Assembly: GCA_964546795.1 (NCBI GenBank)
Contig: CAZJKG010000002.1
Coordinates: 6,307-70,306, forward strand
Direction of reading: 5' to 3'
DNA from: an uncultured Candidatus Saccharibacteria bacterium
GTDB lineage: Bacteria > Patescibacteriota > Minisyncoccia > Phycocordibacterales > Phycocordibacteraceae
Length of the DNA: 64,000 nt
The notes under the pieces are model-generated. The model saw only the letters and a program-made list of their open reading frames with translations. It had not been told where the DNA came from and did not search any database. This document shows positions 16,600 to 64,000 of this stretch, piece after piece. A program made the position numbers and the translations under genes. Position 1 is the stretch's first letter; every line of letters starts with the position of its first letter.

Positions 16600-18171
16600 T
16601 TATTGCACCTCGAAGCTGAACATCATTCCGGTTTCAAGGTGCTCGGCGATATGGCAGTGTGCCATCCATTCGCCGGGATTGGTGATAACAAGCAGAATAT
16701 CGACATATTGTCCAGCAGGAACGAGTACTGTGTCTTTCCACACAAGATTCGTTTGTGGTACGCCGTTCCGGTCAAGCACTAGAAATTGCTGACCGTGAAA
16801 GTGTACCGGGTGTTGCATCGGGTGGTCCGAATTTGCGTCGTTGCTGATTCTGATTTTCACAGCATCGCTGACCTTAAATTTCCAATGAATGTCCATATTG
16901 GCCTTATCGGTGTCTTCGTCCACAATTTTCCAATCCGTCATTCCCGTATTCGACATCGCATTCATCATCGCCATAGTGTCCTCCCATTCGATGCCGTCAG
17001 GACTAAGCATCATGACATTGCTCATAACGGTGCCATCCGACATTCTGTGACTACCGCCCATGTTGGACATCATGCCACCCATCATGTCGATGGTGAGTGT
17101 GAGACGTTTGTCAATCGGTCTGTCAAAATACTGGCGGTACGGATCAATACTTTCAACTGCTGCGCTATTGGTACGAAGTGTTGCAAATGCTTCGGCGTAG
17201 GACGGTAAAGATTCATCGCCTGACACTGAAATCATTCCGAGCGCGTAGGTCTTGTCGGGGGTCTTATGTTGCATCGTGTATGACCCCTCCCTATCAAATA
17301 AAACTTCTACGACCGCGCGTTCCGAAGGTCCGATGATAACGGCATTTTTCCACTCCTCGCGCTCGCTTGCGCCGCCATCTCCGCCGACAAGTTTCATTTT
17401 AACCCCGGAAATAGCGAAGTTAAACGGCCGGGCATTTGCCGAATTGGTGATGTAAAAGCGGATGACCTCTCCCGTTCTCACAGGAAGTTGATACTCCGGC
17501 TCACCATTGACGAGCATCACGTTGCCGAAGCGGCCCATGAGCGTGCGATCGGCTCCTTTCGTGCTCAGATTGATCTTGCCGTCTTCAATGAGAATGTCAT
17601 CGAAAAAGAGCGCGACCTCGCGATTAACGGGGCTCCAGTACGTAGTATCGGAGGGAACGACAAGATAATTGCCATAGAGGCCGAGTTCCTGCTCGAAATC
17701 CTCACGGACATGTGGGTGATACCAATACACACCAGCGTCTGGGAATTTGAGCTTGTAGGAAAATGTTTCGCCCGGATGCATCTCTTTTTGCGACGTCTGC
17801 GAGCCGTCAAACTGGTTGTCCATGCGAACGCCGTGCGAGTGTAGCAGGGTCGGCATGTCCATATTGTTCTTGAAGTTGATAGTGATCTGTGCTCCCTGCG
17901 GGACTTTAATGAGAGGTCCCGGGATCGATCCATTGTACGCGAGCATCCGATACTCCGTACCGTTAATGTTTTTCGCGACATAGCTTGCAGTGAGGGCATA
18001 GGTGTCGCCGTTCTTCAACTCGACAGTTTCAGACGCTTTTACTTCAGACAACCCGGCAATGTCGGTACTGACGTACGCATTACTTCCACTATACGGCGAT
18101 CTCTGATAGAGAAAGAAACCACTGATAACTACCACTGCAACGAGAAGCACATGTAAGTATTTTTCATTCAT
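16600..18171 (-). CDS. Multicopper oxidase (CueO/laccase-like), secreted
   Basis: Type-1/type-3 copper motifs 'HPMQHPVHFHGQQF' and 'WMAHCHIAEHLETGMMF'. N-terminal TM/signal. A Met-rich segment 'MMGGMMSNMGGSHRM' is typical of CueO-type Cu(I)-binding inserts. Confidence 0.85.
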   Translation of the reverse strand: MNEKYLHVLLVAVVVISGFFLYQRSPYSGSNAYVSTDIAGLSEVKASETVELKNGDTYALTASYVAKNINGTEYRMLAYNGSIPGPLIKVPQGAQITINFKNNMDMPTLLHSHGVRMDNQFDGSQTSQKEMHPGETFSYKLKFPDAGVYWYHPHVREDFEQELGLYGNYLVVPSDTTYWSPVNREVALFFDDILIEDGKINLSTKGADRTLMGRFGNVMLVNGEPEYQLPVRTGEVIRFYITNSANARPFNFAISGVKMKLVGGDGGASEREEWKNAVIIGPSERAVVEVLFDREGSYTMQHKTPDKTYALGMISVSGDESLPSYAEAFATLRTNSAAVESIDPYRQYFDRPIDKRLTLTIDMMGGMMSNMGGSHRMSDGTVMSNVMMLSPDGIEWEDTMAMMNAMSNTGMTDWKIVDEDTDKANMDIHWKFKVSDAVKIRISNDANSDHPMQHPVHFHGQQFLVLDRNGVPQTNLVWKDTVLVPAGQYVDILLVITNPGEWMAHCHIAEHLETGMMFSFEVQ

Positions 18172-18176
18172 AGTAA

Positions 18177-20318: not shown

Positions 20319-20339
20319 ACAAGTACACGGAGACCTTCC

Positions 20340-21017
20340 TTATTCGAAGCGCAACTCAATTTTGTCCTTATCGTGCATGACGTAGTTCTCGTACTCAATG
20401 TTTTCCTCCCCATTTACGGTCATCGTTATATTTTTGCCAAATGATTGCATATCCCTGCCCCAATTCGTGAAAAATTGACCAAGAGTAATATCCTGTTTGC
20501 GAACGAGACCTTGAAACTCAAGATGGATAATAGGTAGATCATCATGCGTATGCATCGGCATGTGGACCGCACCGATGCCAATATTTTGCGGAATCTCCTG
20601 CTTTTCACCTTTTACGTAAATGGTAAGTTCCGGATGCCAGTGAAAACCTGATCGGGAGACAATATCTGATTCCGGAATTGGAGGCCTTGTGGCGACATAC
20701 CAGATAAGACCTCCAATCATCGCAATGGTCAGACCGCCGCCCAAAATCCATGAGACAATTTTCTGAAAATTACGTTTCTGCATAGCCGCTTCTTTTGCCT
20801 CCATCTTCACCTGCTGTTTTAGCGCTTTGCGCTCAGTTTTGGTGGGCATCGATTCATTTGTTAATGTGACTGCATGTTTTATTATATCTAAATTACAACT
20901 TTTATGCTCTTTGCACCACGCTTGGCATTTTTCAGCGAATTCTTTGTTCTCATACAGAAGATGGCATTCTTCGCACTGATAGTATTGTTTATTATTATGT
21001 GAAATTATTTTTGTCAT
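20340..21017 (-). CDS. Membrane-anchored protein with an N-terminal zinc-ribbon and a His/Met-rich extracytoplasmic domain, possibly copper-binding
   Basis: N-terminus 'QCEECHLLYENKEFAEKCQAWCKEH' has four Cys. One TM helix follows. The C-terminal domain carries 'HWHPE' and 'AVHMPMHTHDD', which resemble Cu-binding Met/His motifs. It sits directly upstream of copA in the same operon. Confidence 0.45.
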   Translation of the reverse strand: MTKIISHNNKQYYQCEECHLLYENKEFAEKCQAWCKEHKSCNLDIIKHAVTLTNESMPTKTERKALKQQVKMEAKEAAMQKRNFQKIVSWILGGGLTIAMIGGLIWYVATRPPIPESDIVSRSGFHWHPELTIYVKGEKQEIPQNIGIGAVHMPMHTHDDLPIIHLEFQGLVRKQDITLGQFFTNWGRDMQSFGKNITMTVNGEENIEYENYVMHDKDKIELRFE

Positions 21018-21036
21018 GGTTATTTTTGATTAATCA

Positions 21037-21579
21037 TTAAATCTTACAGATCGCTGGATTTTGGATTTGTTTTGCCATCATAGAGAGAGATATCGCAAGT
21101 AGTATCACACCAAGAATACCGAATTCGCCGCCGTTAAGTGGCAGAAATGTCAGTATCCAAGATGCGCCGAAGATCGAAAAAATGCTTGTGAGGAGAAGTG
21201 ACCCGCATGCGGCGCATCCCATACCGACCATACCGCTCGTTATCCCAAAAAATCCAGTAGTAATTCCGCTCTGCTTCACATCAGTGATCCTACGACGCAA
21301 GAAGTAGACAATCATGGCGAGATTGATGCCAAACAAAACAGCAATAGTAATCGTATACGAGGCAGAGAGTGGGGTGAAGTTTGTTGTAATAGAACCGAGC
21401 AAGCTAATCGGCAGACCAAGCTTCTGTGAAAAAGATACTCCCGAATGTCCCATGACTTCCACAATCAATGAAATGTTTGGGAGCCATACGGCAAAAGCAA
21501 AGACGATTGCACTCGTCGCAAGAGCAATGAGTACATACGAGGGTTTTTGAAATACTTTTTGCAGAGCGTGAACGATCAT
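21037..21579 (-). CDS. Polytopic membrane protein with an intramembrane or loop CXXC motif ('GCAACGS')
   Basis: 180 aa, about five TM helices. The stop of the upstream DsbA gene (21582) is 3 bp away. Could be a DsbB/VKOR-like redox partner, but lacks their canonical signatures. Confidence 0.4.
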   Translation of the reverse strand: MIVHALQKVFQKPSYVLIALATSAIVFAFAVWLPNISLIVEVMGHSGVSFSQKLGLPISLLGSITTNFTPLSASYTITIAVLFGINLAMIVYFLRRRITDVKQSGITTGFFGITSGMVGMGCAACGSLLLTSIFSIFGASWILTFLPLNGGEFGILGVILLAISLSMMAKQIQNPAICKI

Positions 21580-21581
21580 TA

Positions 21582-22304
21582 TTATTTTCCCTGCAGGGCC
21601 AGATCAATAAGTTGTTTCACCGCAGAGTACGGCTGCGCTCCGGAGAGCGGATATTTTTTTCCGTTCTTTGCAATCACAATGCTCCATGGTGTTCCGTTTC
21701 CGCCCGTTGCCGCGGCATTTTGTACATCTTCCTCAATATGCTTGGTGAATTTCCCGCTAGTCAGACAGGTATTGAACTTCGCCATATCAAGACCTACGTA
21801 TGCGGCTATCTTGAGGAGCTCGGCCGGATCTAGTCCGTTATTGGAGGGGGTTACTTCATAGAGGCGATCCGTGTAGGTCCAGAATGGGTTGTTGCCCCCT
21901 TGATCGCCGGCGCATTCAAGAGCGACCGTTTCATTCCGTGCCTTTGGGTGGAGTTGGTCCAAAGGGAAATGACGATAGACCCATGCAACTCTTCCGTCCT
22001 TGCCGTATTCATCCATGACTTGCTTCATGGTCTCGTGGAATCGTTTGCAGAAAGGACATTCAGGATCCGAGTATTCAACTATTTTGACCGGCGCATCAGG
22101 ATTGCCTCGAATATGGTCGGCGGCGCTTATCGGCCTCATCTTATCCAAATCGCTTGTCTGCGGCGCCCCTGCCGCCGCTTGGGGCTGCGCCGCCGGAATG
22201 GTTGTAGAACTACCGTGGAAAAATATGGCACCGGCGATGAGAACTCCGGCGATAATGATGGCCGAAGAAATTGATATATTGCTTTGCTTTGAACCTGTTT
22301 CCAT
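21582..22304 (-). CDS. DsbA-family thiol:disulfide oxidoreductase (third copy in window)
   Basis: TM anchor plus active site 'YSDPECPFCKRFHE' in a DsbA fold. Confidence 0.8.
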   Translation of the reverse strand: METGSKQSNISISSAIIIAGVLIAGAIFFHGSSTTIPAAQPQAAAGAPQTSDLDKMRPISAADHIRGNPDAPVKIVEYSDPECPFCKRFHETMKQVMDEYGKDGRVAWVYRHFPLDQLHPKARNETVALECAGDQGGNNPFWTYTDRLYEVTPSNNGLDPAELLKIAAYVGLDMAKFNTCLTSGKFTKHIEEDVQNAAATGGNGTPWSIVIAKNGKKYPLSGAQPYSAVKQLIDLALQGK

Positions 22305-24363: not shown

Positions 24364-25941
24364 TTATGTATTGGAGAGCAAGTTAAGGACCGCCGTATAT
24401 GCGGAACTGATCAAGAATCCGCGATCAAAACTAGTGGAGGTTAGTGGAGAAAGCGGTGATATATAGGAACTGCTGTCAGGATAGGTGCTTCCGGAAGACG
24501 GTGGCGCGTACGAACTGTCCGGTGAGGATTGACTCTTTTCTTCGTAGGTCTCAGTACCTCCTGAAGACGGAGAATACGAAGGTGATGGATATGTATTTTG
24601 ATCTTGTTGGTATTTCTGATACTCGGATTCATACTGCTTTTGATATTCTTGCTGATACTGACTCTGGTATTGCTTCTGATACTCGTCTTGATATTGATTT
24701 TGAAAATCTCCGGTATTCGGAGGAAGAGACATCATTCCGTCCGGTACGTCGCCCTGTCTTCCTTGCATCACCCTCGTGGGAAAGGCCTCTATTCCCTCCT
24801 CTGTGCCCCGGAAACTCCGCTCGCCCTCAAATCCCTGCATCATCCCCTCCGGAGAGAGATGCTCGTCAGGACGCTGCATGAAGCCATGTTCTTCGGCAAA
24901 TTCTTGGCATTCATTTTGATGTGACGCATCCTCGCAATACGTTTTACACTCAAATCCTTTGCAACCGCCCGGACCGGTACTATTGAAAAGTTTCTCGGCC
25001 TGATCGAGCTGTTCTTGTGGAATAAGATCGTGCTCTTTGGCAAAGGCAAAACACACTTCGCGATTGTCCGGATTATCGCAGTATGTGCGGCATTCTTCTC
25101 CGCGGCAGCCGCCGGGACCCTCGATATTCATGAATTTCCGCGCACGCTCGCTATCCTCTTTCGAAATGAGACCGTTCTCTTCCGCGAACGCAAGACACTC
25201 CTCACTATGAGTGGAATCTTCGCAATAGGTTCTGCATTCAACGCCTCTACAACCTCCCGGACCGGTTTTGCCGATAAAGTGCTTTGCTTTGACAAGCTCT
25301 TCCTGCGACATGAGTCCATGTTCTTCGGCAAAAGCAAGACACACCTCCGCATGCGAGACATCCTCGCAGTATATTCGACATTCCTCTCTTTTACAGCCAC
25401 CTGGACCCGCTTCAGTTCCCATCCTCTTTGCCATAACTGCCTCTTCTTTTGAAATGAATCCGTTTTCCTCCGCAAACGCGAGACATTCGTCGAAGTGTGC
25501 ATCGTCCTCGCAGTACGCTTTGCATTCAATACCATGACAACCACCCGGTCCTGACTTCTCTTTGAGAATTCGCGCATATTTAGCATCCTCCGCTTTTATG
25601 ATCCCGTGCTCCTCGGCAAAGTCAATGCACTCTTCAAAATGTTCCTTGACTTCACAGTACGCTCGGCACTCCACCCCCATGCAGCCCCCCGGACCTTCGA
25701 TACTGCCGATTTTCCGAGCTATCGCTGCGTCCTCCTTACCAATCAGATCGTGCGCTTCAGCAAAAGAGAGACATTGATTGATATTCGCTTTAAGATCGCA
25801 ATATACTTTGCATGCTTCCTTCGATTCACAACCACCGAGTTCTGCAACCGGAAACATGATATCGACCTCCGCGGCGTACGCTACGCCTCCGACGAGCAGT
25901 GTGAGCGCAAGAAAGTTCGTCGCGAATATCCTGCGGGACAT
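24364..25941 (-). CDS. Secreted cysteine-rich tandem-repeat protein with a Q/Y/S/P-rich low-complexity C-terminal region
   Basis: Signal peptide 'MSRRIFATNFLALTLLVGGVAYAA'. Eight tandem ~44-aa repeats of consensus 'GPGGCxGxECxxYCEDxxHxxECLAFAEEHGLIsxEE..kAkk', each with four Cys and one His. The tail is 'QNQYQDEYQKQYQSQYQQEYQKQYESEYQKYQQDQ' followed by an S/P/Y-rich stretch. Confidence 0.7.
   Translation of the reverse strand: MSRRIFATNFLALTLLVGGVAYAAEVDIMFPVAELGGCESKEACKVYCDLKANINQCLSFAEAHDLIGKEDAAIARKIGSIEGPGGCMGVECRAYCEVKEHFEECIDFAEEHGIIKAEDAKYARILKEKSGPGGCHGIECKAYCEDDAHFDECLAFAEENGFISKEEAVMAKRMGTEAGPGGCKREECRIYCEDVSHAEVCLAFAEEHGLMSQEELVKAKHFIGKTGPGGCRGVECRTYCEDSTHSEECLAFAEENGLISKEDSERARKFMNIEGPGGCRGEECRTYCDNPDNREVCFAFAKEHDLIPQEQLDQAEKLFNSTGPGGCKGFECKTYCEDASHQNECQEFAEEHGFMQRPDEHLSPEGMMQGFEGERSFRGTEEGIEAFPTRVMQGRQGDVPDGMMSLPPNTGDFQNQYQDEYQKQYQSQYQQEYQKQYESEYQKYQQDQNTYPSPSYSPSSGGTETYEEKSQSSPDSSYAPPSSGSTYPDSSSYISPLSPLTSTSFDRGFLISSAYTAVLNLLSNT
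24774..25860 (-). repeat. Tandem ~132-bp coding repeats (8 copies) within the Cys-rich protein gene
   Basis: Periodic recurrence at protein level of 'GPGGC..EC..YCE....H..EC.AFAEEHG'. Boundaries approximate. Confidence 0.65.
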
Positions 25942-27288: not shown

Positions 27289-28203
27289 TTAATAATCCTT
27301 CCAAAGTTTGTCCTGATAAGGATCTACAATTTTCCCCTTACTATTCCGGACTTCAAAATGGAGATGCGGTCCGACACCCCCATAACCCCCTGAGTAAGCA
27401 ATGATCTGTCCTTCTTTCACGGCGACCGATTTAGTGTAGTCAGTAAGTTGAGCTTCAATTTCATCTACCAATTTTGTGCAGTGCAAGAGCCAGGAAACAT
27501 AGCTATTGGCGTGTTTGATATAGAAAGAGTGCCATCCTTCCCAAGCAGTAGGATTATTGAGCCCAAGATTCTTTAGTGCCCACGTTCTGTTAACTCCATC
27601 AATCGGATCAGTTTGTGCTTTAAATAAGTCCCCGTCTGCAGGGGCTATAAGTTGCGTTCCTGGAATGCACTTAAAGTCATAACCCGCATGGCCATCATAA
27701 TTTAGATAAAACGTTGGCCCATATTTGTCTCCTGCACCTGGTGCACCTACATAATTAATTTCCCCGGCAGAGAAAAATGGAGATGGAACTTTCTTTGCAT
27801 ACCCTAAAGCACTCGTTCCGGCACAAGGATCCCCGTCTCCGACTTCTCCATTAAAAGATCGTGTCTTTTGATCTTTCGCATTCAAGCCCCACGGCTTATT
27901 GCTACTTGGATCAATCGCTGTGCCCATATGGTCAATCACGGCAGTGATTTTTGCGGTACGGGACGTAACGGGCCTTCCATTTGCGTCATTGAGTTTGACT
28001 GGACAAATGAGGAATCCGGTGCTCGTTGGTACGACTGGAGCGGGAGCCGGTTCTGGCGCTGGCGGCACAATCACTGGAGGTGGTACAGGTTGCGGAGTCG
28101 GAGGTAGATTAATCGGGGCCGGTACAGGTTGAACCTTTGATTTAGAAAGGTTCGTAAGGAAAGTCTTAAGTACCTCTCCCAAGATTTTGAGAAACGACTG
28201 CAT
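27289..28203 (-). CDS. M23 family metallopeptidase (LytM-like peptidoglycan endopeptidase) with a Pro-rich N-terminal linker
   Basis: C-terminal 'GPHLHFEVRNSKGKIVDPY' is the M23 HxH zinc-site signature. Pro-rich 'PVPAPINLPPTPQPVPPPVIVPPAPEPAPAPVVP'. The track ORF starts at TTG 28230; the first ATG is at ~28203. The TATAAT of R2 is only ~7 nt upstream, so the transcript may be leaderless. Confidence 0.8.
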   Translation of the reverse strand: MQSFLKILGEVLKTFLTNLSKSKVQPVPAPINLPPTPQPVPPPVIVPPAPEPAPAPVVPTSTGFLICPVKLNDANGRPVTSRTAKITAVIDHMGTAIDPSSNKPWGLNAKDQKTRSFNGEVGDGDPCAGTSALGYAKKVPSPFFSAGEINYVGAPGAGDKYGPTFYLNYDGHAGYDFKCIPGTQLIAPADGDLFKAQTDPIDGVNRTWALKNLGLNNPTAWEGWHSFYIKHANSYVSWLLHCTKLVDEIEAQLTDYTKSVAVKEGQIIAYSGGYGGVGPHLHFEVRNSKGKIVDPYQDKLWKDY

Positions 28204-28210
28204 ATCTACT

Positions 28211-28267
28211 ATTATACCGTCAAGCTCCAATTGAGTTTTCTAGAACCTTAAATCGACCCTCCTCGGA
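28211..28267 (-). promoter_or_regulatory. Island promoter/operator element, copy R2
   Basis: Duplicate of R1. The minus strand reads ...AAAACTCAATTGGAGCTTGACGGTATAAT immediately 5' of the M23 peptidase ATG. Confidence 0.45.
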
Positions 28268-28309: not shown

Positions 28310-29227
28310 TTAGATCATAATCTTTTCTGAACGAATGAGATGATCCATCTTCTGATAAGCATGGATAGCAGTTGTGTGGTCTTTCTTTTTCATCACCTTA
28401 GCTATTTGTGGGAAAGATAATTTCGCATTTCTCCTTAAGAAATATATGGCGAGATGTCTAGGAAAAACAAGATTCGCCATTCTTCTGCTTCCCAATAAAT
28501 CGTCGATTGGTATAGCGTATGCCTTACTTATACTTGCAATGATATCTTTAACTTCTACCAGTTCGGACGGATCGATTGGTATTGGTTTTTTAGGGGGTGC
28601 CGGAACTGCCCCATTGAGTTTGAGTATTGTTGTATTTAGAATTTGTCTTATTCGCTCCCGCGTGATGCCAAATTTCCCTGCAATTACTTCATAAGTCTTG
28701 CCTTCGAGTCTTAGTCTCATTATTTCATTTTCTCTTTCATTCATTCTGATGTTGCCCGTAGCACGAGCTGGAGCTGAATTGTAAATAAAAGCTGGATTCC
28801 CTTTCTCTAGCACACCAAAGAAGTCATCGATGATAGAAAATTCTGTAAAAGCTGTAATTTTCTGTCCATCGTCATAAACAATTTTCATTTCATTATCAAA
28901 ATCATTTGATGAGATTTGCTTCAACAAATCGTGTAGAACTTCATTTCTTTTGTTGCGATAACGGTCAAATAGTCCTCTCTTTTCTTTGGGTAACCACTCG
29001 CTATCAAATAATAATTTAATTAATTCGGAAAGATTGTACTGAACGATTCTCTTTCTCAAAGCAGCTAAAATAGCTGGGTCTGCATCTCTTATCGATAGCG
29101 ACAATTTAGTTTCGACAAACAATTTTATTAGACTTTCTATGTAGGCACTTTGTAATACAAAAGCTTCGAGAAGAAGGTTCTTCTGTCCATAGTTTTCTAT
29201 TCTTTCTTTTAGGTCATCTTTCCTCAT
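28310..29227 (-). CDS. DNA-binding regulator fusing sigma-70 region 4 (HTH) to a DnaA C-terminal (domain IV) DNA-binding domain
   Basis: 'ERENEIMRLRLEGKTYEVIAGKFGITRERIRQI' matches sigma-70 region 4. 'VKDIIASISKAYAIPIDDLLGSRRMANLVFPRHLAIYFLRRNAKLSFPQIAKVMKKKDHTTAIHAYQKM' matches DnaA domain IV, including the DHTT(V/A)(I/L)HA signature. There is no AAA+ domain. About 38% GC. Confidence 0.7.
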   Translation of the reverse strand: MRKDDLKERIENYGQKNLLLEAFVLQSAYIESLIKLFVETKLSLSIRDADPAILAALRKRIVQYNLSELIKLLFDSEWLPKEKRGLFDRYRNKRNEVLHDLLKQISSNDFDNEMKIVYDDGQKITAFTEFSIIDDFFGVLEKGNPAFIYNSAPARATGNIRMNERENEIMRLRLEGKTYEVIAGKFGITRERIRQILNTTILKLNGAVPAPPKKPIPIDPSELVEVKDIIASISKAYAIPIDDLLGSRRMANLVFPRHLAIYFLRRNAKLSFPQIAKVMKKKDHTTAIHAYQKMDHLIRSEKIMI

Positions 29228-46882: not shown

Positions 46883-47758
46883 ATGATACCATCGTGCGCA
46901 ATGGTGAGGCAAATTTTATGCATAATCGGCCCGACCGCCTCCGGGAAATCTTCTCGCGCGGTCGAGGAAGCCCTCGTTCGCAACGGCGAGATTATCTCAG
47001 TTGATTCGCGACAAGTATACCGCGGACTTGATATCGGCACTGAGAAAATTACTCCCGAGAAAATGTGTGGGATTCCTCACCACCTTATTGATATCCGTAA
47101 TCCGAAGGAGAATTATTCCGCCGGAGATTTTGTCGCGGATGCGACTCGCCTCATTAAGGATATTTCGGCTCGTGGGAAGCTCCCCATCCTTGTCGGAGGA
47201 ACGCATTTTTATTTCCACGCGCTTCTCCATGGCCTTCCGATGGGAATCGATGCAAATCCCCTGCTTCGCGAAGAACTTGAAACACTTTCCGCGGAAGAGC
47301 TCTATGCGCGCGTCCGCCTGGCGGACGCGCGCCGGGCTGCGGAATTGGATTCCAAGAATCGCCGCCGACTCATCCGCGCCCTTGAAATCATTGTCTCCCT
47401 TGGCACCGTCCCACCGCGCAGCTTAACTGCAACTTCATTTGGTACAAGGTTGAACCTTGTAAAATATGTTGTTGAATGGATAGTGATTGACCCACCAAAA
47501 GAGGAATTGAGCGCAAGAATAGACGCGCGGTTAGAAAGCGCACTTGCACGCGGACTTATTGATGAGGTACGACGTGTGCGCGAAGCGGTCGGTGATACGC
47601 GACTGAATGAACTGGGGCTTGAATATAAAATAGTGGGCGAGTTTTTGCGCGGAGAACGCACTGAAGCATCGCTTCTTCCGGCTCTCTCGGCAAAACTCTG
47701 GCAGTATGCACGACGCCAAAAGGCGTGGCTACGCAAACTAGGACATCGGATGTCCTAG
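46883..47758 (+). CDS. miaA: tRNA dimethylallyltransferase
   Basis: P-loop 'IIGPTASGKSS' and 'DSRQVYRGLDIGTEKIT...IPHHLIDI'. Confidence 0.85.
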   Translation: MIPSCAMVRQILCIIGPTASGKSSRAVEEALVRNGEIISVDSRQVYRGLDIGTEKITPEKMCGIPHHLIDIRNPKENYSAGDFVADATRLIKDISARGKLPILVGGTHFYFHALLHGLPMGIDANPLLREELETLSAEELYARVRLADARRAAELDSKNRRRLIRALEIIVSLGTVPPRSLTATSFGTRLNLVKYVVEWIVIDPPKEELSARIDARLESALARGLIDEVRRVREAVGDTRLNELGLEYKIVGEFLRGERTEASLLPALSAKLWQYARRQKAWLRKLGHRMS

Positions 47759-49092
47759 TTTGCGTCTTTTATTTTATTATAGTATTGGCTAACCTTAGTA
47801 ACATAATTTCTCGTTTCGATATAACCCGTATTGGGAATAGTGTGTGCCTTATTATCCCATTCGCACTGCCATCTTGAAGAATTGGGGCAATCTCGGCTTG
47901 GTTTATTAGCTCCCGGGCCGCCATTATAGGCGGCGATGATTTTATTTACATCGCCATCATATTTGGCGGACAAATTCTTGAGATAAGCCGTACCGAGTTT
48001 AACATTGTAAACATGATCTGTTAATAATTTTTCTCTAACCTGAGCGTCCGATAAATTCTTCAGTGCTTCTTTATCGACCTCTCGCGCAGTATCAATTCTG
48101 ATCTGCATACGTCCTAAGGACTCTGTACCATCTCTGGCGGTATTAATGATATGATCATCTTTCCTGTTAGATGATTCCGTTTGAATAATAGCTTTCACTA
48201 AATCTGGATCTACGCCATTAATACGTGTTGGTTGCGCAGGTGCGGACGAAGGTGATGGAGTGGGCGATGTCGGGGCCGGTTCCGACGTTTGTTTACTTTG
48301 TTCATCAATTACCTGTTGTACTAAATTACTCGCTTCTGGAGCAATAGGGTCTGTATCTGTATAAGGAGGTTCAGGGGGTTTTTGCTTTAAGCCATCAGTT
48401 TCTGGCACACTTTTGAAAGCAGGTGTGCTAATAGTAACTCCGTCTTCTTTAGTATAACAATTACCATCATCGTCACAAGAAAAACCGTCGAGCGTGGCTA
48501 TTGCCACCGATCTCTGAGCGGGAGTAGCTGGTAAAATCGGTGGTTTTGAAAGTGCTGATGCGGGAGATGATGCGCTTGGTTGCTGTGCAACAGAGAGAGT
48601 CGGCGAGGCGGCTGTAGAAGGCGATGCCGATGAGGAAACCGAACCTTTCTGCTTAAGGCAGGGGTCGCTAGGGTTGCTGATGATGAGCTGCGACCACGTA
48701 GAACCGATGGAACCGGTTGGGTGATACAGGACCGCCATAATCGCATCAACGATGAGCCATCCTGAAAGCGCAATAACGATGCCGACTATTGTGTGGGTAA
48801 GAATACTCTTCGCCTCCTCTCTGCCGCTCGGGTTTACCGGATTCACCACGAAGAGGAACCCGGAATAGGCAATCATCAGTGGCGCGACGAATACGATAGC
48901 GAGCGTGATGAGCAAGCTGATGATGTTGTTGATGACAGTGACGAGCATTCCCCAACCGGCGGGACAAGCCGCATATTGTTCTGGGATAATGGGGCCGAAG
49001 AAAGGTATCCCGCCGGCGTGTGCGGCAAGAGGCACTACAAGTACGGAACTTATTATAAGCAAAGGCGCGAATGCGAGAATTCGAGAACGCAT
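47755..49092 (-). CDS. Pilin-like (TrbC/VirB2-type two-helix) N-terminal domain fused to a lytic transglycosylase (SLT/VirB1-like) domain
   Basis: N-terminus: signal peptide, then 'AACPAGWGMLVTVINNIISLLITLAIVFVAPLMIAYSGFLFVVNP...GREEAKSILTHTIVGIVIALSGWLIVDAIM'. It shares the 'hydrophobic helix – charged loop – WG..G hydrophobic helix' pattern of the pilin-like array at 61.2–63.5 kb. An S/P/T-rich linker follows. C-terminal SLT motifs: 'SLGRMQIRI...', 'GTAYLKNL' and 'AYNGGPGA'. Confidence 0.65.
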   Translation of the reverse strand: MRSRILAFAPLLIISSVLVVPLAAHAGGIPFFGPIIPEQYAACPAGWGMLVTVINNIISLLITLAIVFVAPLMIAYSGFLFVVNPVNPSGREEAKSILTHTIVGIVIALSGWLIVDAIMAVLYHPTGSIGSTWSQLIISNPSDPCLKQKGSVSSSASPSTAASPTLSVAQQPSASSPASALSKPPILPATPAQRSVAIATLDGFSCDDDGNCYTKEDGVTISTPAFKSVPETDGLKQKPPEPPYTDTDPIAPEASNLVQQVIDEQSKQTSEPAPTSPTPSPSSAPAQPTRINGVDPDLVKAIIQTESSNRKDDHIINTARDGTESLGRMQIRIDTAREVDKEALKNLSDAQVREKLLTDHVYNVKLGTAYLKNLSAKYDGDVNKIIAAYNGGPGANKPSRDCPNSSRWQCEWDNKAHTIPNTGYIETRNYVTKVSQYYNKIKDAN

Positions 49093-56911: not shown

Positions 56912-57676
56912 TTGCAGTATATAACGTTACCACTTATACTGTATGACGTGGGAGTCAAATATTTTGTGAATGAAAAGTTCTTTGATGTGTGGGGTGATGA
57001 GATGGCATATGTGCTTGGTTATCTTTACGCGGACGGAAGTTTGGAGGACTCGCCACATATTCGGGGTAAGTATGTACGAGTGACAAGTACGGATCGGGAC
57101 AGGATTGAAATCATCCGGTCATTGCTCAAATCTGAACACACTATCGTCCGCGAAATTCAAGATGCTCGACGCAAACCTCGGTTCCTCTTGAGAATTGGAA
57201 ACAGTCAGCTGTTTGATGCTTTGATTAAAATCGGTATTACGCCCCATAAGTCATTGACTATGGAATTTCCGGTCGTGCCAAATCTCTATTTCGGATCGTT
57301 CTTGCGGGGATACTTCGATGGGGATGGTTGTGCTCATATAGACATTGTGCACGGAAAACCAAAACGTTTGCTTTCTATCTTTACAAGCGGCAGTAAGATA
57401 TTTCTTGAAGCACTCCATAAGCGTTTATCTAATGAGATCGGTCTCATCGGAAACGGTCTATACTCACACGGCAGCACTGCTGGTGCCTACCAACTACGTT
57501 ACTCCACTCGAGATAGTTTGCGGTTATTCAATTTCATGTATCCGCGAGGACTCAGTAAGAAGTTACATTTGCGAAGAAAATACGATATATTTATGCAGTA
57601 CCTTGAACTCAGGGGTATTTCGCGGGGTGAAATACCCCTTGTGTTGAATCAGAAAGGCCCGATGGTGAAGAGGTAA
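56912..57676 (+). CDS. LAGLIDADG-family homing endonuclease (two-motif, single-chain type), free-standing
   Basis: Two LAGLIDADG motifs, 'LGYLYADGS' and 'LRGYFDGDGC', spaced ~100 aa apart. AT-rich (~42% GC) relative to the flanks. The track ORF starts at TTG, so the start is uncertain. The 3' end overlaps the first ~20 nt of tRNA-Cys. Confidence 0.8.
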   Translation: MQYITLPLILYDVGVKYFVNEKFFDVWGDEMAYVLGYLYADGSLEDSPHIRGKYVRVTSTDRDRIEIIRSLLKSEHTIVREIQDARRKPRFLLRIGNSQLFDALIKIGITPHKSLTMEFPVVPNLYFGSFLRGYFDGDGCAHIDIVHGKPKRLLSIFTSGSKIFLEALHKRLSNEIGLIGNGLYSHGSTAGAYQLRYSTRDSLRLFNFMYPRGLSKKLHLRRKYDIFMQYLELRGISRGEIPLVLNQKGPMVKR

Positions 57677-59067: not shown

Positions 59068-60363
59068 ATGTCGACAAAAGTGGTCGAAAATTGGCGCACA
59101 AACGCCAAAAAAGATCTCGAGGAAATGATAGTGAAATTGGACGAGGAGTTCGAAGCGGAAAAGAAAGAAATTAAGAAACAGAAGGCGAAGGATGCCTCAC
59201 TCTATGAACCAGCTGACCGGTATTACTGGGCTACAGTCGCGCTGTACGTCTTCACGCAAGTGATACTGGGGCTTCTTGTATCGCTTCCATTAACAACGGA
59301 AGTGGTGTCAATGGGAATTCCGGTCAACATTGGCGTGACAGCTCTACTGTTGCAAACCCTCCACTTCATCGGCTCCTTCCGCTCGATCAAAGTTGATGAT
59401 CTGGCTGGCTTCACCCTCTTCGGCCGACCGTGGTATGTTCCGAAACCGGGGCTCTATCTTGTCCCACTGTGGATCTTAAAAGTTATCCGAGCGAGTCGGA
59501 ATTACAAGGACAAACGTTTCCCTGGTCCAGCGGACAAAATCTTTCGGATTAGCTCAACGTTGCAGGATACTCGTGTGGGTGGTGATATTCCTCCTGAAGG
59601 CATGGTTCGCCCCATCTTCGTGATGACCGGGGAGCCGAAGTTAACCGAGGAAGATGAAAAGAAACTCAAAGATAACGGAGGAGCGAATCCTCTCGACCGG
59701 CAACTCTCGGCGGAGATAGCATATTTCGTTCGCTATCGCCCGGATCAGGAGTATGGCGGCATCTTCCGTATCGCCCGCAACCTTTCTGCACAGATCGGGG
59801 ATATTGATGAACGAATCTTGGACCTCGTGCAGGAACAGTCGGAACGCGATATGAAGGCCGTTCTCTCGCGTCATACGCCAGCAACGATCATCGAGAACTG
59901 GGACATCATCAACAAGGTCTTCGTTTTGAAACTTCGGTTGGCGGTCATGCGGCTCGGTATTGATGTTGATAAGAATGGCGGTGGACTCGACGACTTAAAC
60001 CTCAGTCATAAAACCAACGATGCGCAAGCAGAGGTGACACGAGAACAATTCAGAAAACATGCGACGATAACCAAGGCCGAAGCCGAAAAGATTAAACGCC
60101 AAAAAGAACGCGAAGGCGATGCTGCGGGAGAATTGGCGTGGCTTACCGCTGAGGCGGAGGGTCGTAAGAAAATGAAGGAGGCACTTAAGGTAAAGGGTGA
60201 TGCTGTTCTCGCTTCCGAATCCGTCCGCGGTATATTGGGTTCAACCGATGTGATTCTCGCAGGCGGTGAAGGTGGTATGAGAGACGTAATGACCTTCGTC
60301 AAGGGGGCTCAAAGCGTACTCAACTCTGGCCAGTCCAAACCTCAAACGGTGAAAGGAGCGTAG
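59068..60363 (+). CDS. SPFH/band-7 (stomatin/flotillin-like) domain membrane protein (tentative)
   Basis: N-terminal TM helices, then 'IKVDDLAGFTLFGRPWYVPKPGLYLVPLWILKVIRAS', which resembles the start of an SPFH domain. A long charged coiled-coil C-terminus follows. Confidence 0.45.
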   Translation: MSTKVVENWRTNAKKDLEEMIVKLDEEFEAEKKEIKKQKAKDASLYEPADRYYWATVALYVFTQVILGLLVSLPLTTEVVSMGIPVNIGVTALLLQTLHFIGSFRSIKVDDLAGFTLFGRPWYVPKPGLYLVPLWILKVIRASRNYKDKRFPGPADKIFRISSTLQDTRVGGDIPPEGMVRPIFVMTGEPKLTEEDEKKLKDNGGANPLDRQLSAEIAYFVRYRPDQEYGGIFRIARNLSAQIGDIDERILDLVQEQSERDMKAVLSRHTPATIIENWDIINKVFVLKLRLAVMRLGIDVDKNGGGLDDLNLSHKTNDAQAEVTREQFRKHATITKAEAEKIKRQKEREGDAAGELAWLTAEAEGRKKMKEALKVKGDAVLASESVRGILGSTDVILAGGEGGMRDVMTFVKGAQSVLNSGQSKPQTVKGA

Positions 60364-60365
60364 CA

Positions 60366-61121
60366 ATGAGTATCAGTACTGACGGACTGCTAGGAGCATC
60401 TGTCGTTGTTCTGGTGGTCTACATGATCTACGTATTCGGTACGAAGAAATCTTCCTGGAACCTTCCTTCCCTCGACAAAATCAAAACGCCGACTGTCTCC
60501 GAAAACTGGCTACTCGCTATCAGTGGCGTCCTGGTTCTCCTTTGGGGCATGTACACCCCGGGACTACGACCATCAGAGATAGGACAGTTTGGCTCTCGGT
60601 ATTGGTTGCAGATCGTCATCGGATGGGGTATCTTCGCTGCTCTCATTGCCCTCAACAAAGAGGTCTTTGGAACAGCGACAAAAACGCTTCAGGGAGTGCT
60701 GGCGGGAATTGTGTTCTTTCTCCTTGTCGGCTTTCCGACATGGTCCTGGATTTCGGGACCCAGTGGAACACTCGCTGTCAAAACTGTGGCTCAGGCACCG
60801 TTAAAGGAGCCAGCGCAAATTCTGCCGCAGAACGCGCCGAAGCTTCCGTTGGCAAAAGACCTGAAACAGGAAGAGTGGCCGCAACTGGTCTTGGCGGAAG
60901 ATGGAGAATCGGAACGTATTCCCATCCCATTCAAAATGCGTGTAGTGACGTTTGGAGAAGATTTCCGCGTCCACTGCGTGTATCGAGATGGGCATGAGAT
61001 TGACTTTGGCAAAGGGGAGGAGCCGTGTCCAGACGGCGATATGCCCTACGTCTACGTGACGAACGAGGCAGAAGGGCCGAATATGATCTCCTACGCCTAC
61101 GCTCCGATTGGAAGTTCCTAA
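60366..61121 (+). CDS. Membrane protein (4 TM + C-terminal soluble domain), translationally coupled to the SPFH-like gene
   Basis: Its ATG is 3 nt after the upstream stop. Could be the membrane partner of the SPFH protein. No family recognised. Confidence 0.4.
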   Translation: MSISTDGLLGASVVVLVVYMIYVFGTKKSSWNLPSLDKIKTPTVSENWLLAISGVLVLLWGMYTPGLRPSEIGQFGSRYWLQIVIGWGIFAALIALNKEVFGTATKTLQGVLAGIVFFLLVGFPTWSWISGPSGTLAVKTVAQAPLKEPAQILPQNAPKLPLAKDLKQEEWPQLVLAEDGESERIPIPFKMRVVTFGEDFRVHCVYRDGHEIDFGKGEEPCPDGDMPYVYVTNEAEGPNMISYAYAPIGSS

Positions 61122-61204
61122 AGTTCTTTTGATTTGAAAGGAGGTTTTCGAAGGGCCGCGCGACTAAAAATCGTGCGGCCTTTCTCTTTTTCTATTCACT
61201 GCCC

Positions 61205-61474
61205 CTATGGCGAAATCTTGTGTATCGGTGAAATGCCGAATGTCCCAAGCGCGAGATTGATGATGCCGTACGCACCGAAGATGATGACGAGGCCGATGAG
61301 GCCCCAGAAGATAGCGCTCTTGCCCTCCTCACGCTTCCCTTCGTCCCCCGCCTGCCGGATGAACTCAAACACGCCCCACAGGAATACGACAAACGCGCCC
61401 GCGATGAGCAGCAGAATAATCGGATTGATAATCTGGACGACGACTTTCTGGAGAAACTCGTTGAGAACGGGCAT
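61205..61474 (-). CDS. TrbC/VirB2-like pilin-family small membrane protein, paralog 1 of 6
   Basis: '...INPIILLLIAGAFVVFLWGVFEFIRQAGDEGKREEGKSAIFWGLIGLVIIFGAYGIINL': two hydrophobic helices flanking a short charged loop. Confidence 0.5.
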   Translation of the reverse strand: MPVLNEFLQKVVVQIINPIILLLIAGAFVVFLWGVFEFIRQAGDEGKREEGKSAIFWGLIGLVIIFGAYGIINLALGTFGISPIHKISP

Positions 61475-61484
61475 TTATCTAATA

Positions 61485-61910
61485 TCAAATTCCAAAAGGC
61501 GCTTTCGGTATACCACCGGTTGGCGCTCCACTAGTAAAACCAGTGGTACCAGTGAGGATATTCACGAGACCCCATACCGAGATCATAACGAAAAAACCGA
61601 TGAGGCCCCAGAGCATGAGATTCTTCCCTTTCTCCCTTACCTCTTCATTGTTGGCACCCAGAATGAAGGTATCGAACGCGCCCCACAAGAACACGATGAA
61701 AGCGACTGCGAAGAGCACTGGGACAAGAACATTGTTGATAGTATTGATAACAAGCGAACCAGCAGTCGAGAGATTGGTGGGCGTTTGAGCCAAAGAAACG
61801 AGCGGTAGAGCGAATGCAGCGAGTGTTCCCGAAAATATAGCGAGGGCTTTTTTCATAGTATGGGTAAGTGGATAACGAAGTAATTGTAACGTTCCTCTAG
61901 ACAGAGTCAA
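61485..61910 (-). CDS. TrbC/VirB2-like pilin-family small membrane protein, paralog 2
   Basis: The likely start is the internal 'MKKALAIFSGTLAAFALPLVSLA' signal peptide at ~61856. Core 'LVPVLFAVAFIVFLWGAF...NEEVREKGKNLMLWGLIGFFVMISVWGLVNIL'. Confidence 0.5.
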   Translation of the reverse strand: MTLSRGTLQLLRYPLTHTMKKALAIFSGTLAAFALPLVSLAQTPTNLSTAGSLVINTINNVLVPVLFAVAFIVFLWGAFDTFILGANNEEVREKGKNLMLWGLIGFFVMISVWGLVNILTGTTGFTSGAPTGGIPKAPFGI

Positions 61911-61937
61911 CTATACCTTCCCGTCTCGTGGGGATAG

Positions 61938-62228
61938 CTACAGTTTTGGATACGGGGGCGCACCGCCGCCCGGCACGAGCCAGAACGTGGCATTAACGAT
62001 CGCCACCAACCCCCAAAGAGAAAGAATAACGACGAAGCCAATGATGCCCCAAAGGACGAACTGCCGGCCCGTCTGACGCTCGGTGTCGCTCGCCGCACCG
62101 AGAATAAAATACTTGTAGACACCCCACAGGAAAGTGATGAATGCTATGGCTATCAAGGCCGGAACGAGAAGAACATTGATGATGTAGAGGATGTCACCCC
62201 CGTATTTTTGCAAAGGCATCAAATTCAT
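61938..62228 (-). CDS. TrbC/VirB2-like pilin-family small membrane protein, paralog 3
   Basis: 'INVLLVPALIAIAFITFLWGVYKYFILGAASDTERQTGRQFVLWGIIGFVVILSLWGLVAIV'. Confidence 0.5.
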   Translation of the reverse strand: MNLMPLQKYGGDILYIINVLLVPALIAIAFITFLWGVYKYFILGAASDTERQTGRQFVLWGIIGFVVILSLWGLVAIVNATFWLVPGGGAPPYPKL

Positions 62229-62239
62229 AACAAAACAGA

Positions 62240-62743
62240 TTACCGGACCGGCGGCGGCGGTCCGAATGACGAATAGGACGTCGGTTGGGGCAGTGCAAAA
62301 GAGCCCTGAAGGCCGAATGTGTTAGCAACGACATTCACAAGTCCCCAGAGCGATATCATGACCGCAAATGCAATGAGGCCCCACAGGATGATCTTATGCC
62401 CTTCCTTCACTCTCTCGGGATCTCCTACGGAAAAAATATACGCACGGGCAATGCCATAGAGGAACACGATGAAAGAAACCGCGAAAAGGAGCGGTACCAA
62501 CACGCCATTGATGACGTTAATAATAGTAATCGCGATGCCACTAATACCATACCCTCCTCCGAATCCGCCACCAAATGGCATACCAAAGATGCCATTCGAG
62601 AAAACTTGCGACGAGTACGAACTGATGCCTGGTACCGTATAACTGGTACGCAATTCTTGTGCTGATGTGAAGATTGGCATGAGAAGCACTATGAATACTA
62701 AAGCGACACGAACGACGGGTCTCATATGCGGGAAGTATGACAC
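62240..62743 (-). CDS. TrbC/VirB2-like pilin-family small membrane protein, paralog 4 (longer Gly-rich N-terminal part)
   Basis: Signal 'MRPVVRVALVFIVLLMPIFTSAQ'. Core 'LVPLLFAVSFIVFLYGIARAYIFSVGDPERVKEGHKIILWGLIAFAVMISLWGLVNVV'. Confidence 0.5.
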   Translation of the reverse strand: MSYFPHMRPVVRVALVFIVLLMPIFTSAQELRTSYTVPGISSYSSQVFSNGIFGMPFGGGFGGGYGISGIAITIINVINGVLVPLLFAVSFIVFLYGIARAYIFSVGDPERVKEGHKIILWGLIAFAVMISLWGLVNVVANTFGLQGSFALPQPTSYSSFGPPPPVR

Positions 62744-62744
62744 A

Positions 62745-63026
62745 TCAGGCGGTCGGCGCGATGCCGAGCGTGGATAACAAGATATTCACGAATCCCCATA
62801 CCGAGAAGAGCACTACCATGCCAATAATGCCCCAGAAGACGAATTGTCGTCCTTCGGAGCGCTTCCCTTCATCGCTGCCATGGAGGAAAAAATAGTTCAC
62901 GACACCCCAGATGAAAACCGCAAAAGCGAGAGCAAAAATAACCGGTATGACGACAGTGTTGAAAAGGCCGATGATACCGATGGACCCGCCGCCAACGTAT
63001 TGAGCAAAGGTCATAATTTTGGCCAA
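62745..63026 (-). CDS. TrbC/VirB2-like pilin-family small membrane protein, paralog 5
   Basis: 'VVIPVIFALAFAVFIWGVVNYFFLHGSDEGKRSEGRQFVFWGIIGMVVLFSVWGFVNIL'. Confidence 0.5.
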   Translation of the reverse strand: MAKIMTFAQYVGGGSIGIIGLFNTVVIPVIFALAFAVFIWGVVNYFFLHGSDEGKRSEGRQFVFWGIIGMVVLFSVWGFVNILLSTLGIAPTA

Positions 63027-63035
63027 CCGGGCATA

Positions 63036-63461
63036 TTAGCCGCCAGTGGAGAGCGCTTGCACGGTCGCCTTAATACCAATGGCGATGACCTTGGCTCCGA
63101 GGAGTATGAGAGCGCCAACGACGGTCCAGAGGAGCATTTGGCGCGCTTCGGTAATTTTGCCCGGTTCGCCACGCGCGGTGACGAATTTGAACCCGACGAA
63201 AACCATCATGAGAATGACGATGACCGGACCGATGGTGTTGGTAATGATGTTCAGAATGCTCAGTAAAAACGAATTGATACTCGTACCTTCGCCGAGCGGA
63301 TTAATGAGTTTGGTGCCGGTATTTCCCCCCGGTTGAAGGAAAGAACCGCCAGTATTTCCCCCGGGAGATACTATGGCAGATTGTGCGTGCTGGGCGGGCG
63401 CAGCGCCCGCCGCGATTATAACGAAAGCGAAAACAAGAAAAAAAATAGTGAAAAAACGCAT
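63036..63461 (-). CDS. TrbC/VirB2-like pilin-family small membrane protein, paralog 6
   Basis: Signal peptide 'MRFFTIFFLVFAFVIIAAGAAPA'. Core 'IGPVIVILMMVFVGFKFVTARGEPGKITEARQMLLWTVVGALILLGAKVIAI'. Confidence 0.45.
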   Translation of the reverse strand: MRFFTIFFLVFAFVIIAAGAAPAQHAQSAIVSPGGNTGGSFLQPGGNTGTKLINPLGEGTSINSFLLSILNIITNTIGPVIVILMMVFVGFKFVTARGEPGKITEARQMLLWTVVGALILLGAKVIAIGIKATVQALSTGG

Positions 63462-63463
63462 AA

Positions 63464-64000
63464 TTATTGTTGGAGAAGAGAGCTTAAAGAGCGCGCCGCG
63501 CTCCCAAGCACATCATCGACCGTGGAACGACCGCTTATCACGCTTCCAATCATACCCGAGAAGATGCGATTAACATCGGCAGGTGATGGGGATAGCCATC
63601 CTTTGCTGTAGAGCGCTTCGGCGTACGCGACCGCGGCAATGGGATCGGAGGAGGGAATGTTGGCAAGCTGGCTCAACGTTGCGGGTGCGAGTCCGGTCGC
63701 TCCCGCAGCAAGAGTTTGTTCGGTCGCATTGCTGAAGAGCGCGGCGGCCTGATAAGCGCCGGAGGGATTCTTGGCCCCACGCGGAATCATGAATGCATAC
63801 ACGAGGCCGTAGGCGCTTTTCTCCTTGGCGGTGGCACTTTGCGGCAGAGGCGTCACGTTGAAGTTGAGGTTCGGATTTGCCTCTCGCAGATAGCGTGCAC
63901 GGGACGCGTAGCCGAGATAGAGTGCAAGATCGCCCGCTATAAACATCTGCTCGGAATCCGGCAACGAAGTATTCCAGGTGTAGGAAACCTTGGCTGGATC
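63464..64000 (-). CDS. Hypothetical secreted protein, 5'-truncated by the window edge (possibly the C-terminal part of a solute-binding protein)
   Basis: The open frame runs to the window end. Weak resemblance to the C-terminal lobe of family-1 extracellular solute-binding proteins. Confidence 0.25.
   Translation of the reverse strand, partial: DPAKVSYTWNTSLPDSEQMFIAGDLALYLGYASRARYLREANPNLNFNVTPLPQSATAKEKSAYGLVYAFMIPRGAKNPSGAYQAAALFSNATEQTLAAGATGLAPATLSQLANIPSSDPIAAVAYAEALYSKGWLSPSPADVNRIFSGMIGSVISGRSTVDDVLGSAARSLSSLLQQ

Follow-up and report, generated by a model that had tools for sequence, protein, structure and literature searches.

Tandem arrays of pilin genes in the Patescibacteria have been described in some detail. 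A survey based on the Pfam families PF04956 and PF18895 recorded 441 arrays, of 2–11 pilin genes each, among 383 assemblies of Patescibacteria (Quinonero-Coronel et al. 2025, PMC12102498), an array being defined there as at least two genes matching either family and lying in tandem or with one non-pilin gene between them; mean identity within the surveyed arrays was 25%, with a maximum of 54%, and a contribution to host-range or antigenic versatility was suggested. In Southlakia epibionticum ML1, a pilin series inside the type IV secretion system (T4SS) cluster SEML1_0006-0019 was established as essential by transposon sequencing (Tn-seq) (Wang et al. 2023, PMC10633639), the pilins in question being six structurally conserved, sequence-divergent, VirB2-like proteins (review PMC12857230), and service as an uptake conduit has been raised in the cited literature as a speculative role for such a pilus. 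The present analysis concerns a 64-kb stretch of DNA from an uncultured Candidatus Saccharibacteria bacterium (contig CAZJKG010000002.1, positions 6,307 to 70,306; hereafter the window), near one end of which six consecutive genes for small membrane proteins, here termed P6 to P1 in their order along the minus strand, occupy positions 61205-63461. With six adjacent matches the locus falls under the published definition, and so adds one more to the tandem VirB2-like arrays already reported from Patescibacteria.

As judged from gene order and substitution rates, the array is an ancient, fixed and individually conserved set under purifying rather than diversifying selection. It is probable, though by no means certain, that the six genes specify non-redundant subunits of a single hetero-oligomeric, pilus-like envelope structure of a Patescibacteria T4SS-like machine, to which a solute-binding protein (SBP) encoded directly upstream may attach. 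Scanning one genome per species with P2 yielded 50 loci, in which paralogues were assigned by best hit to the window copies. The exact order P6, P5, P4, P3, P2, P1 was recorded downstream of the SBP gene, as one-to-one orthologues, in 33 of these 50 species-level loci, and relative L063 likewise displayed the fixed six-gene order; most of the remaining loci were either cut by contig ends or one duplication or loss apart, and a five-gene variant (P6, P5, P2-like, P2-like, P1) was present in four more distant genomes. Median identities to the window copies lay between 55 and 73% per paralogue, compared with 67% for the adjoining SBP. Ratios of non-synonymous to synonymous substitution (dN/dS), computed against L063 as the closest long relative, were 0.08 for P1, 0.10 for P2, 0.14 for P5, 0.18 for P4, 0.19 for P6 and 0.21 for P3, thus falling in the range of the neighbouring SBP (0.09), aminotransferase (0.13) and racemase (0.15) genes, all of these values being approximate because dS, at 0.7–1.4, was near saturation. 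P2 and P1 were the most conserved paralogues. The fixed one-to-one order and low dN/dS together disfavour antigenic variation. Of the two possibilities offered by the original prediction, antigenic diversification is thus countered by the orthologues in 33 of 50 loci and by dN/dS values of 0.08–0.21, and functional diversification, understood as the maintenance of ancient non-redundant subunits, provides the better reading.

Equivalent comparisons of the N-termini indicated that a signal peptide was always present in P2 and P6 orthologues, never present in those of P1 and P5, and gained or lost between species in P3 and P4. Most P3 orthologues carried a signal peptide plus a variable linker, P4 orthologues from some lineages were devoid of one, and P6 orthologues combined a signal peptide with a variable, often Cys-rich linker. 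The possible rule that copies bearing and copies lacking a signal peptide strictly alternate was refuted by this turnover of P3 and P4 between species. A P1-type terminal gene without a signal peptide was also found to close the arrays of the distant lineages L054 and L066.

That the separate paralogues act together is suggested by their fusion in relatives, which constitutes classical gene-fusion evidence. An exhaustive profile search with the six-copy profile returned 21,066 cluster representatives at E ≤1e-3, and about one in three of the top 150 (P0245-P0296; up to 820 residues) carried between two and eight matched modules per chain, the sequences consisting of clean tandem hairpins with linkers of 25–45 residues. 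Two such proteins, one of seven modules in L064 (8001-9821) and one of three modules in L066 (8001-9011), are encoded within the same synteny of gyrA, methyltransferase gene, SBP gene and array; the L066 array has a P6-type gene first and the P1-type gene mentioned above last. In L064 the seven-module gene is followed by four near-identical 106-residue copies, each with promoter-like and terminator-like flanks, which look like a recent amplification. Covalent fusion renders the use of one copy at a time for antigenic purposes unlikely. No mention of multi-module fusions was found in PMC12102498.

Within the window itself, the six consecutive same-strand genes of 89–167 codons originally described were confirmed at exact coordinates, all on the minus strand, with the listed open reading frames (ORFs) separated by 1–27 nucleotides (nt). 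P6 (63036-63461; 141 residues) comprises a signal peptide, a Gly/Thr/Asn-rich linker and a two-helix hairpin; P5 (listed as 62745-63026; 93 residues, TTG start) is a hairpin without a signal peptide; P4 (62240-62743; 167 residues) combines a signal peptide, a Gly-rich linker and a hairpin; P3 (61938-62228; 96 residues) is a hairpin that in this genome carries no signal peptide; P2 was listed as 61485-61910 (141 residues); and P1 (61205-61474; 89 residues), the last gene of the array, is again a hairpin without a signal peptide. The true start of P2 is most likely the ATG at 61856, giving a protein of 123 residues (61485-61856), because this form corresponds exactly to database protein P0001 and the orthologues all begin MKKAL. 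For P5 the ATG at 63014, giving 89 residues, is the probable start, because its orthologues begin MTFAQF and the same gene call was made in locus L001, and the GTG start of P4 was backed by orthologues beginning MSYLPYMKS.

Hydropathy analysis resolved each of the six copies into two long hydrophobic segments with a charged loop of 10–15 residues between them, and an AlphaFold2 model of P2 (pLDDT 71) consisted of a signal-peptide helix plus hairpin helices at residues 29–69 and 71–104, the hairpin scoring a pLDDT of 76–91; the two-helix hairpin topology proposed for the family was thereby upheld, as was the optional nature of the signal peptide, which was evident from both hydropathy and orthologue N-termini. 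Signal peptides ending A-x-A|Q were located on P2 (MKKAL...SLA|Q), P4 and P6, and P1, P3 and P5 start only 10–25 residues ahead of helix 1. Since those of P2, P4 and P6 are cleavable Sec-type signal peptides, both termini of these proteins are extracellular, whereas their charged loop faces the cytoplasm. Alignment established a common motif for P1–P5, F[LI][WY]G at the end of helix 1 and WG[LI]I[GA] at the start of helix 2, with some 14 charged-loop residues in between, so that the helix-end motifs initially ascribed to all six copies hold for these five but not for P6, which deviates with FVGF ... WTVVG. Pairwise identities followed the same division, P1–P5 being 34–49% identical among themselves and P6 only 17–25% identical to the others.

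All six proteins matched Pfam PF18895 (T4SS_pilin), E values ranging between 7e-6 and 2.5e-10. Against a gathering cut-off of 26.6 bits, five were above threshold (P2, 40.7; P1, 37.2; P5, 34.0; P4, 29.0; P6, 27.3 bits) and P3, at 26.5 bits, fell 0.1 bit short, but is a clear paralogue, being 39–47% identical to the other members of the P1–P5 group and aligned by hhalign to P1 and P5 with a probability of at least 99.6%. P2 had 1087 database homologues, the best 120 of which were 70–100% identical, and from these comparisons the family relationship of the six genes is far beyond chance. The names of the homologues and related loci (Candidatus Kaiserbacteria, Paceibacterota, Parcubacteria) assign the host to a Kaiserbacteria-like lineage within the Patescibacteria, or candidate phyla radiation (CPR).

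The link to VirB2 proved more uneven. None of the six reached the 27.9-bit cut-off of the TrbC/VirB2 family PF04956 (P6, 25.9 bits; P1, 14.3 bits; the other four no match), and with NCBIfam NF045849, the Mbov_0395 family of pilin-like conjugal transfer proteins, P2 scored 39.7 bits, 0.3 under the cut-off of 40 bits, and P6 16.9 bits. Profile-profile comparisons were therefore made with the P1, P2, P3, P5 and P6 orthologue groups and with all six groups pooled, the targets being six annotated VirB2/TrbC genes of MPF_T plasmids, recovered by tblastn with a VirB2 query sequence (99% match), and a Mbov_0395-like gene of Pontibacillus, a Firmicute, which has as neighbours another pilin-like gene and a CD1110-type VirB4. 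The P6 orthologues aligned to MPF_T VirB2 with 65% probability (P 6e-5) over 64 columns spanning both helices, compared with 2% (P 0.02) for a reversed-VirB2 control, and to the Pontibacillus protein with 97% probability (E 4.5e-11). They also aligned to the P1 and P2 groups with 96–97% probability (E 5e-11 and 2e-9). Direct tblastn comparison of P6 with plasmids gave weak matches only (E ≥0.8). Because only the P6 profile ties to VirB2 and Mbov_0395, and P6 in turn ties to the P1 and P2 groups, P6 is, on profile evidence, what connects the array to the VirB2 superfamily, with P1–P5 as a derived subfamily. The original assignment of the array to TrbC/VirB2-type pilins therefore stands in so far as PF18895 is matched throughout and P6 reaches Mbov_0395 and, with moderate similarity, VirB2 by profile, but not at the level of the PF04956 cut-off.

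The only sizeable internal gap of the array, the 81-nt spacer between P3 and P2 (61857-61937, minus strand), contained a series of elements suggestive of regulation. On the minus strand a box CTATCCCCAC (61937-61928) is followed by a −35 hexamer TTGACT (61910-61905) and a −10 hexamer TACAAT (61888-61883), identified by promoter scan as the near-consensus arrangement TTGACT-16-TACAAT, then by a box TTATCCACT (61875-61867), by TTACCCATACT, and by the P2 ATG. A 37-species alignment of the spacer showed the order CTATCCACAC, TTGACC, 17 nt, TACAAT, GTTATCCAC, TTACCYATACT, ATG to be kept almost base for base, and of the 58 occurrences of TATCCACA in 537 kb of related loci, 35 were situated approximately 80 nt ahead of the ATG of P2. 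TTATCCAC fits eight of the nine positions of a DnaA box. The TTATCCACA motif was not enriched across the window (13 found, 9.8 expected), so motifs of the TTATCCAC type are specific to the array locus. The spacer is probably an internal promoter for P2–P1, flanked by DnaA-box-like repeats that are kept in about 35 species (spacers of L002-L049), and if so these two genes, with a regulated promoter of their own, may encode the most abundant subunits. A related box, TGTTATCCACGCTCGG, is carried by the 3' coding end of P5 (TTATCCACG at 62769-62777) and was found in 35 of 46 loci; within it, third-codon positions were 0.76–0.91 conserved against 0.41–0.72 elsewhere in the aligned coding stretch; an TGTGTCATACTT element lies in the P5–P4 junction just ahead of P4, the CATACT element being present in 33 of 46 loci. 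Internal promoter boxes were not found mentioned in PMC12102498. Similar DnaA-box-like motifs were observed in the pilin-gene spacers of L064 and upstream of an M23 peptidase gene there. In the window, an M23 peptidase gene (27289-28230, minus strand) is directly preceded by one (28310-29227, minus strand) for a 305-residue protein with a sigma-70 region 4 helix-turn-helix and a DnaA C-terminal DNA-binding domain, but devoid of an AAA+ module; to cast this protein as a candidate reader of the DnaA-box-like sites is pure speculation.

A seventh member of the family was located 13 kb from the array. The gene at 47755-49092 (minus strand) encodes a 445-residue protein with three hydrophobic segments in which a signal peptide and a VirB2-like hairpin precede a C-terminal SLT lytic transglycosylase domain (Pfam SLT, 56.9 bits; PF18895, 25.6 bits; six-paralogue profile, E 1.6e-7), and to which the Pontibacillus pilin-like protein also matched. 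The pilin-SLT fusion that had been noted at 47.8–49.1 kb is accordingly real, with both domains present. It is plausible that it represents a VirB1 analogue tethered by a pilin-like anchor, effectively a VirB2-VirB1 fusion; no mention of this architecture was found in PMC12102498, a paper on Patescibacteria T4SS. L063 too has an SLT gene, placed after those for ClpB and L33.

By way of contrast, the P-loop ATPase encoded at 7357-10233 (minus strand; 958 residues) gave a less favourable result. This soluble protein, without a transmembrane (TM) segment, matched DUF87, TraG-D_C and TrwB_AAD_bind and, weakly, TraD/VirD4-like NCBIfam models, and strongly matched the uncharacterised phrog_5156 (E 2e-64), but gave no match to a Firmicute VirB4. 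Its identification as the VirB4 of the system was therefore unsupported, its resemblance being to VirD4/TraD coupling proteins. It is followed by a gene (5337-7352, minus strand) for a 671-residue protein with coiled-coil and membrane regions and no family match. Approximately two VirD4-like coupling-protein homologues are present per Patescibacteria genome, mostly far from virB4, and that of Southlakia is non-essential (PMC12102498); the 958- and 671-residue proteins look like such orphan type IV coupling protein homologues. The dispersed T4SS initially envisaged for the window is thus weakly supported: a VirD4/TraD-like ATPase is present, but it is not VirB4, and neither VirB4 nor VirB3, VirB6 or VirB8 was recognised.

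The array is not embedded in a virB1-virB2-virB3-virB4 cluster, its neighbours being the SBP gene, a methyltransferase gene (in relatives), and genes for a 251-residue membrane protein and an SPFH protein. The 3' part of the SBP gene (63464-64000, minus strand) ends with its stop 2 nt ahead of the P6 start; the full sequence, taken from the identical locus L001, specifies a membrane-anchored family-1 solute-binding protein of 436 residues (Pfam SBP_bac_8, SBP_bac_1) for which the sugar-binding MBP1 (4r9f; E 4.5e-9) is the nearest relative of solved structure. In 46 of 51 related loci, and additionally in L064 and L066, an SBP gene immediately precedes the array, with an overlapping UbiE-type methyltransferase gene and then gyrA usually further upstream, and with no ABC permease or ATPase gene adjoining it; the more distant array L054 has no SBP gene upstream. 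In the library searched, no literature connecting an SBP with pilin arrays was found, PMC12102498 included. At the other end of the array, a terminator scan located a 14-bp GC-rich hairpin (61150-61184) between P1 and the convergent gene for the 251-residue protein, which is likely to be a bidirectional terminator closing the array. With this terminator, the short intergenic distances and the promoter ahead of P2, the array is organised as a tight operon. The converging genes (59068-61121, plus strand) encode this 251-residue protein, which has four TM segments and a soluble domain at its C-terminus, and a 431-residue SPFH/Band-7 protein; in many relatives, L064 among them, both are again found downstream of the array, and the 251-residue protein is fast-evolving (26–41% identity).

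Drawing these observations together, the six hairpin proteins would associate in the membrane to build a single hetero-oligomeric, pilus-like tube or conduit belonging to a monoderm-type T4SS-like machine of Patescibacteria, P6 being the putative ancestral VirB2/Mbov_0395-like component and P2 and P1 the subunits with the highest expression. A passage for this structure through the cell wall would be opened by the separate hairpin-SLT fusion, and the upstream SBP could work with the structure, for example in the capture of host-derived sugars. A more specific version, which we hold to be possible but doubtful, would make the six hairpins and a co-transcribed orphan SBP obligate stoichiometric subunits of a VirB2-derived uptake conduit for host-derived molecules, as distinct from a homopolymeric conjugative pilus, with the P2–P1 promoter and its DnaA-box-like sites coupling their synthesis to the replication cycle.

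A number of results weigh against a heteromeric pilus-like assembly of this type, in addition to the near-saturated dS referred to above. The P1, P2, P3 and P5 profiles each aligned to MPF_T VirB2 with a non-significant hhalign probability of no more than 4%, and the six groups pooled with one of 7.6% (P 0.0046). Searching solved structures with the six-paralogue profile gave chance matches only (E ≥0.5), no pilin among them; Foldseek comparison of the P2 model with the PDB returned nothing at E ≤1, and fold searches with the same model gave generic helical hairpins only and no solved pilin, a helical hairpin being too simple for fold comparison to discriminate. For P0246, a naturally occurring fusion of three modules, the AlphaFold2 model was poor (pLDDT 55, pTM 0.36), such that hairpin packing was not readable from it. 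With VirB3, VirB4, VirB6 and VirB8 all unrecognised in the 64 kb of the window, it is homology and the situation in other lineages that connect the array to a T4SS, and because synteny from gyrA to IF-2 is generally conserved in the lineage, adjacency of the SBP gene is in itself weak functional evidence. Furthermore, no pilus is known to have been seen for this family.

The same data can be set against three other explanations. Were the six copies interchangeable major pilins serving antigenic or host-range variation, as in the VirB2 arrays of Bartonella and Anaplasma, then their divergence (17–49% identity), the four near-identical 106-residue genes of L064 with their own promoter- and terminator-like flanks, and the variation between species in the length and composition of the extracellular linkers at the N-termini of P6, P4 and P3 would all be accommodated, and a proposal to this effect has been made for Patescibacteria arrays (PMC12102498). 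We nevertheless regard it as distinctly unlikely, given the constant order of one-to-one orthologues in 33 of 50 species, dN/dS of 0.08–0.21 in all six genes, the covalent multi-module fusions, which make one-at-a-time use improbable, and the fact that no repeats or recombination cassettes were noted. A very different objection is that pilin likeness might be merely compositional, the genes encoding small membrane proteins of some unrelated kind, for example holins, PspC-like proteins or ATP-synthase c-ring-like proteolipids. P5 did indeed give a weak PHROG holin match (phrog_20, E 2.4e-3), fold searches match any helical hairpin, and multi-hairpin fusions recall V/A-type c-subunits. However, the other five proteins gave no holin match and all matched PF18895 far more strongly, no endolysin gene is adjacent and the chromosomal context is one of conserved housekeeping genes rather than a lysis cassette, helix 2 is devoid of the conserved membrane-embedded Asp/Glu needed by a c-subunit, and the P6 profile match to conjugation pilin-like proteins was well above its reversed-sequence control. 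Holin and c-subunit identities were both rejected on these grounds, and this explanation as a whole is exceedingly improbable.

A further alternative is an SBP-linked complex independent of any T4SS, in which the six hairpins, with 12 TM helices in all, would form a hetero-oligomeric channel for host-derived sugars and no pilus. The SBP gene, 2 nt upstream and kept in 46 of 51 loci, persists even where array architecture has changed (L064, L066), its product resembles sugar-binding proteins and evolves under a dN/dS of 0.09, and it has no adjoining ABC permease or ATPase gene; in addition, fusion into polytopic proteins of 4–16 helices recalls transporter evolution, and T4SS core genes are absent from the vicinity. 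Such a complex must be reconciled with the homology to VirB2/Mbov_0395 conjugation pilin-like proteins, with the Saccharibacteria array inside a T4SS cluster (PMC10633639), with a general conservation of synteny that could make adjacency passive, and with the distant L054 array that has no upstream SBP; moreover, no energising component was identified. On balance, it is considered unlikely, and a hetero-oligomeric pilus-like structure of a T4SS-like machine remains the preferred reading.

The other genes of the window are largely those expected of small-genome housekeeping (UvrB, Tgt, IF-2, RbfA, ClpB, TopA, RelA/SpoT, ParB, SerRS, DprA and tRNAs). A LAGLIDADG endonuclease ORF (56912-57676, plus strand) lies between rbfA and the tRNA/racemase block, and an HNH endonuclease occupies the matching position in L063 (7022-7543), which suggests a hotspot for free-standing homing endonucleases. 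A copper/redox island at 12637-22304 comprises genes for a multicopper oxidase (16600-18171), for a P-type ATPase carrying a heavy-metal-binding domain (18177-20318), for a DsbA/thioredoxin-like protein (21582-22304) and for a ZIP-like 7-TM protein (11878-12594), together with those for two membrane-anchored paralogues in which a CPxC motif was read by eye (12637-13314 and 13326-14084). A secreted protein of 525 residues (24364-25941, minus strand), made up of approximately seven repeats of 50 residues of the form GPGGCxGxECxxYCE...H..EC..FAEEHG(L/F)I, gave no Pfam match and has the appearance of a Cys-rich repeat protein, possibly of metal- or redox-related function.

Much of the diversity of uncultured bacteria belongs to the Patescibacteria, whose way of life is attachment to host cells, and a T4SS-like machine with its pilin array is essential in the only member that is genetically tractable. 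Arrays of this kind were already known; the comparative leads added here include the tie to an orphan SBP in a Kaiserbacteria-type lineage and a conserved internal promoter. Comparative details of this kind sharpen the question of what the essential pilins of monoderm CPR bacteria build, and paralogues that are fixed, individually conserved and sometimes fused favour heteromeric assembly over antigenic variation.

Compared with the surveyed arrays of PMC12102498, the window array is alike in Pfam family, phylum, chromosomal location, absence of a nearby relaxase, and tandem same-strand copies that are divergent (17–49% here). It differs in that the surveyed arrays are mainly from Microgenomatia and Saccharimonadia and often near virB4, whereas this one is of Kaiserbacteria/Paceibacteria type, has no virB4 in 64 kb, and is held in a fixed gyrA-methyltransferase-SBP-array synteny; in place of the versatility proposed for the former, orthology and dN/dS here favour fixed non-redundant subunits. 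The likeness to Southlakia ML1 extends to six tandem VirB2-like hairpin genes of conserved structure but divergent sequence in a monoderm CPR host, although those genes lie inside a T4SS cluster and are essential, and those of the window lie apart from recognisable T4SS genes. With the Mbov_0395 family of conjugative elements in Mollicutes and Firmicutes the array shares a 97% profile match through P6, a score of 39.7 bits, just under the 40-bit cut-off, through P2, and a monoderm context; that family is represented by one or two copies in mobile conjugative clusters, as opposed to six chromosomal copies here, five of them derived and bearing FLWG...WGLIG. Classical VirB2/TrbC pilins have the same succession of signal peptide and similar-sized two-helix hairpin, with a loop between the hydrophobic helices, but the window copies all score under the PF04956 cut-off, half are without a signal peptide, the host is monoderm, and no virB1 or virB3 flanks them. 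Finally, tandem paralogues are common to this locus and to the VirB2 arrays of Bartonella and Anaplasma, but those of the window are conserved rather than varying.

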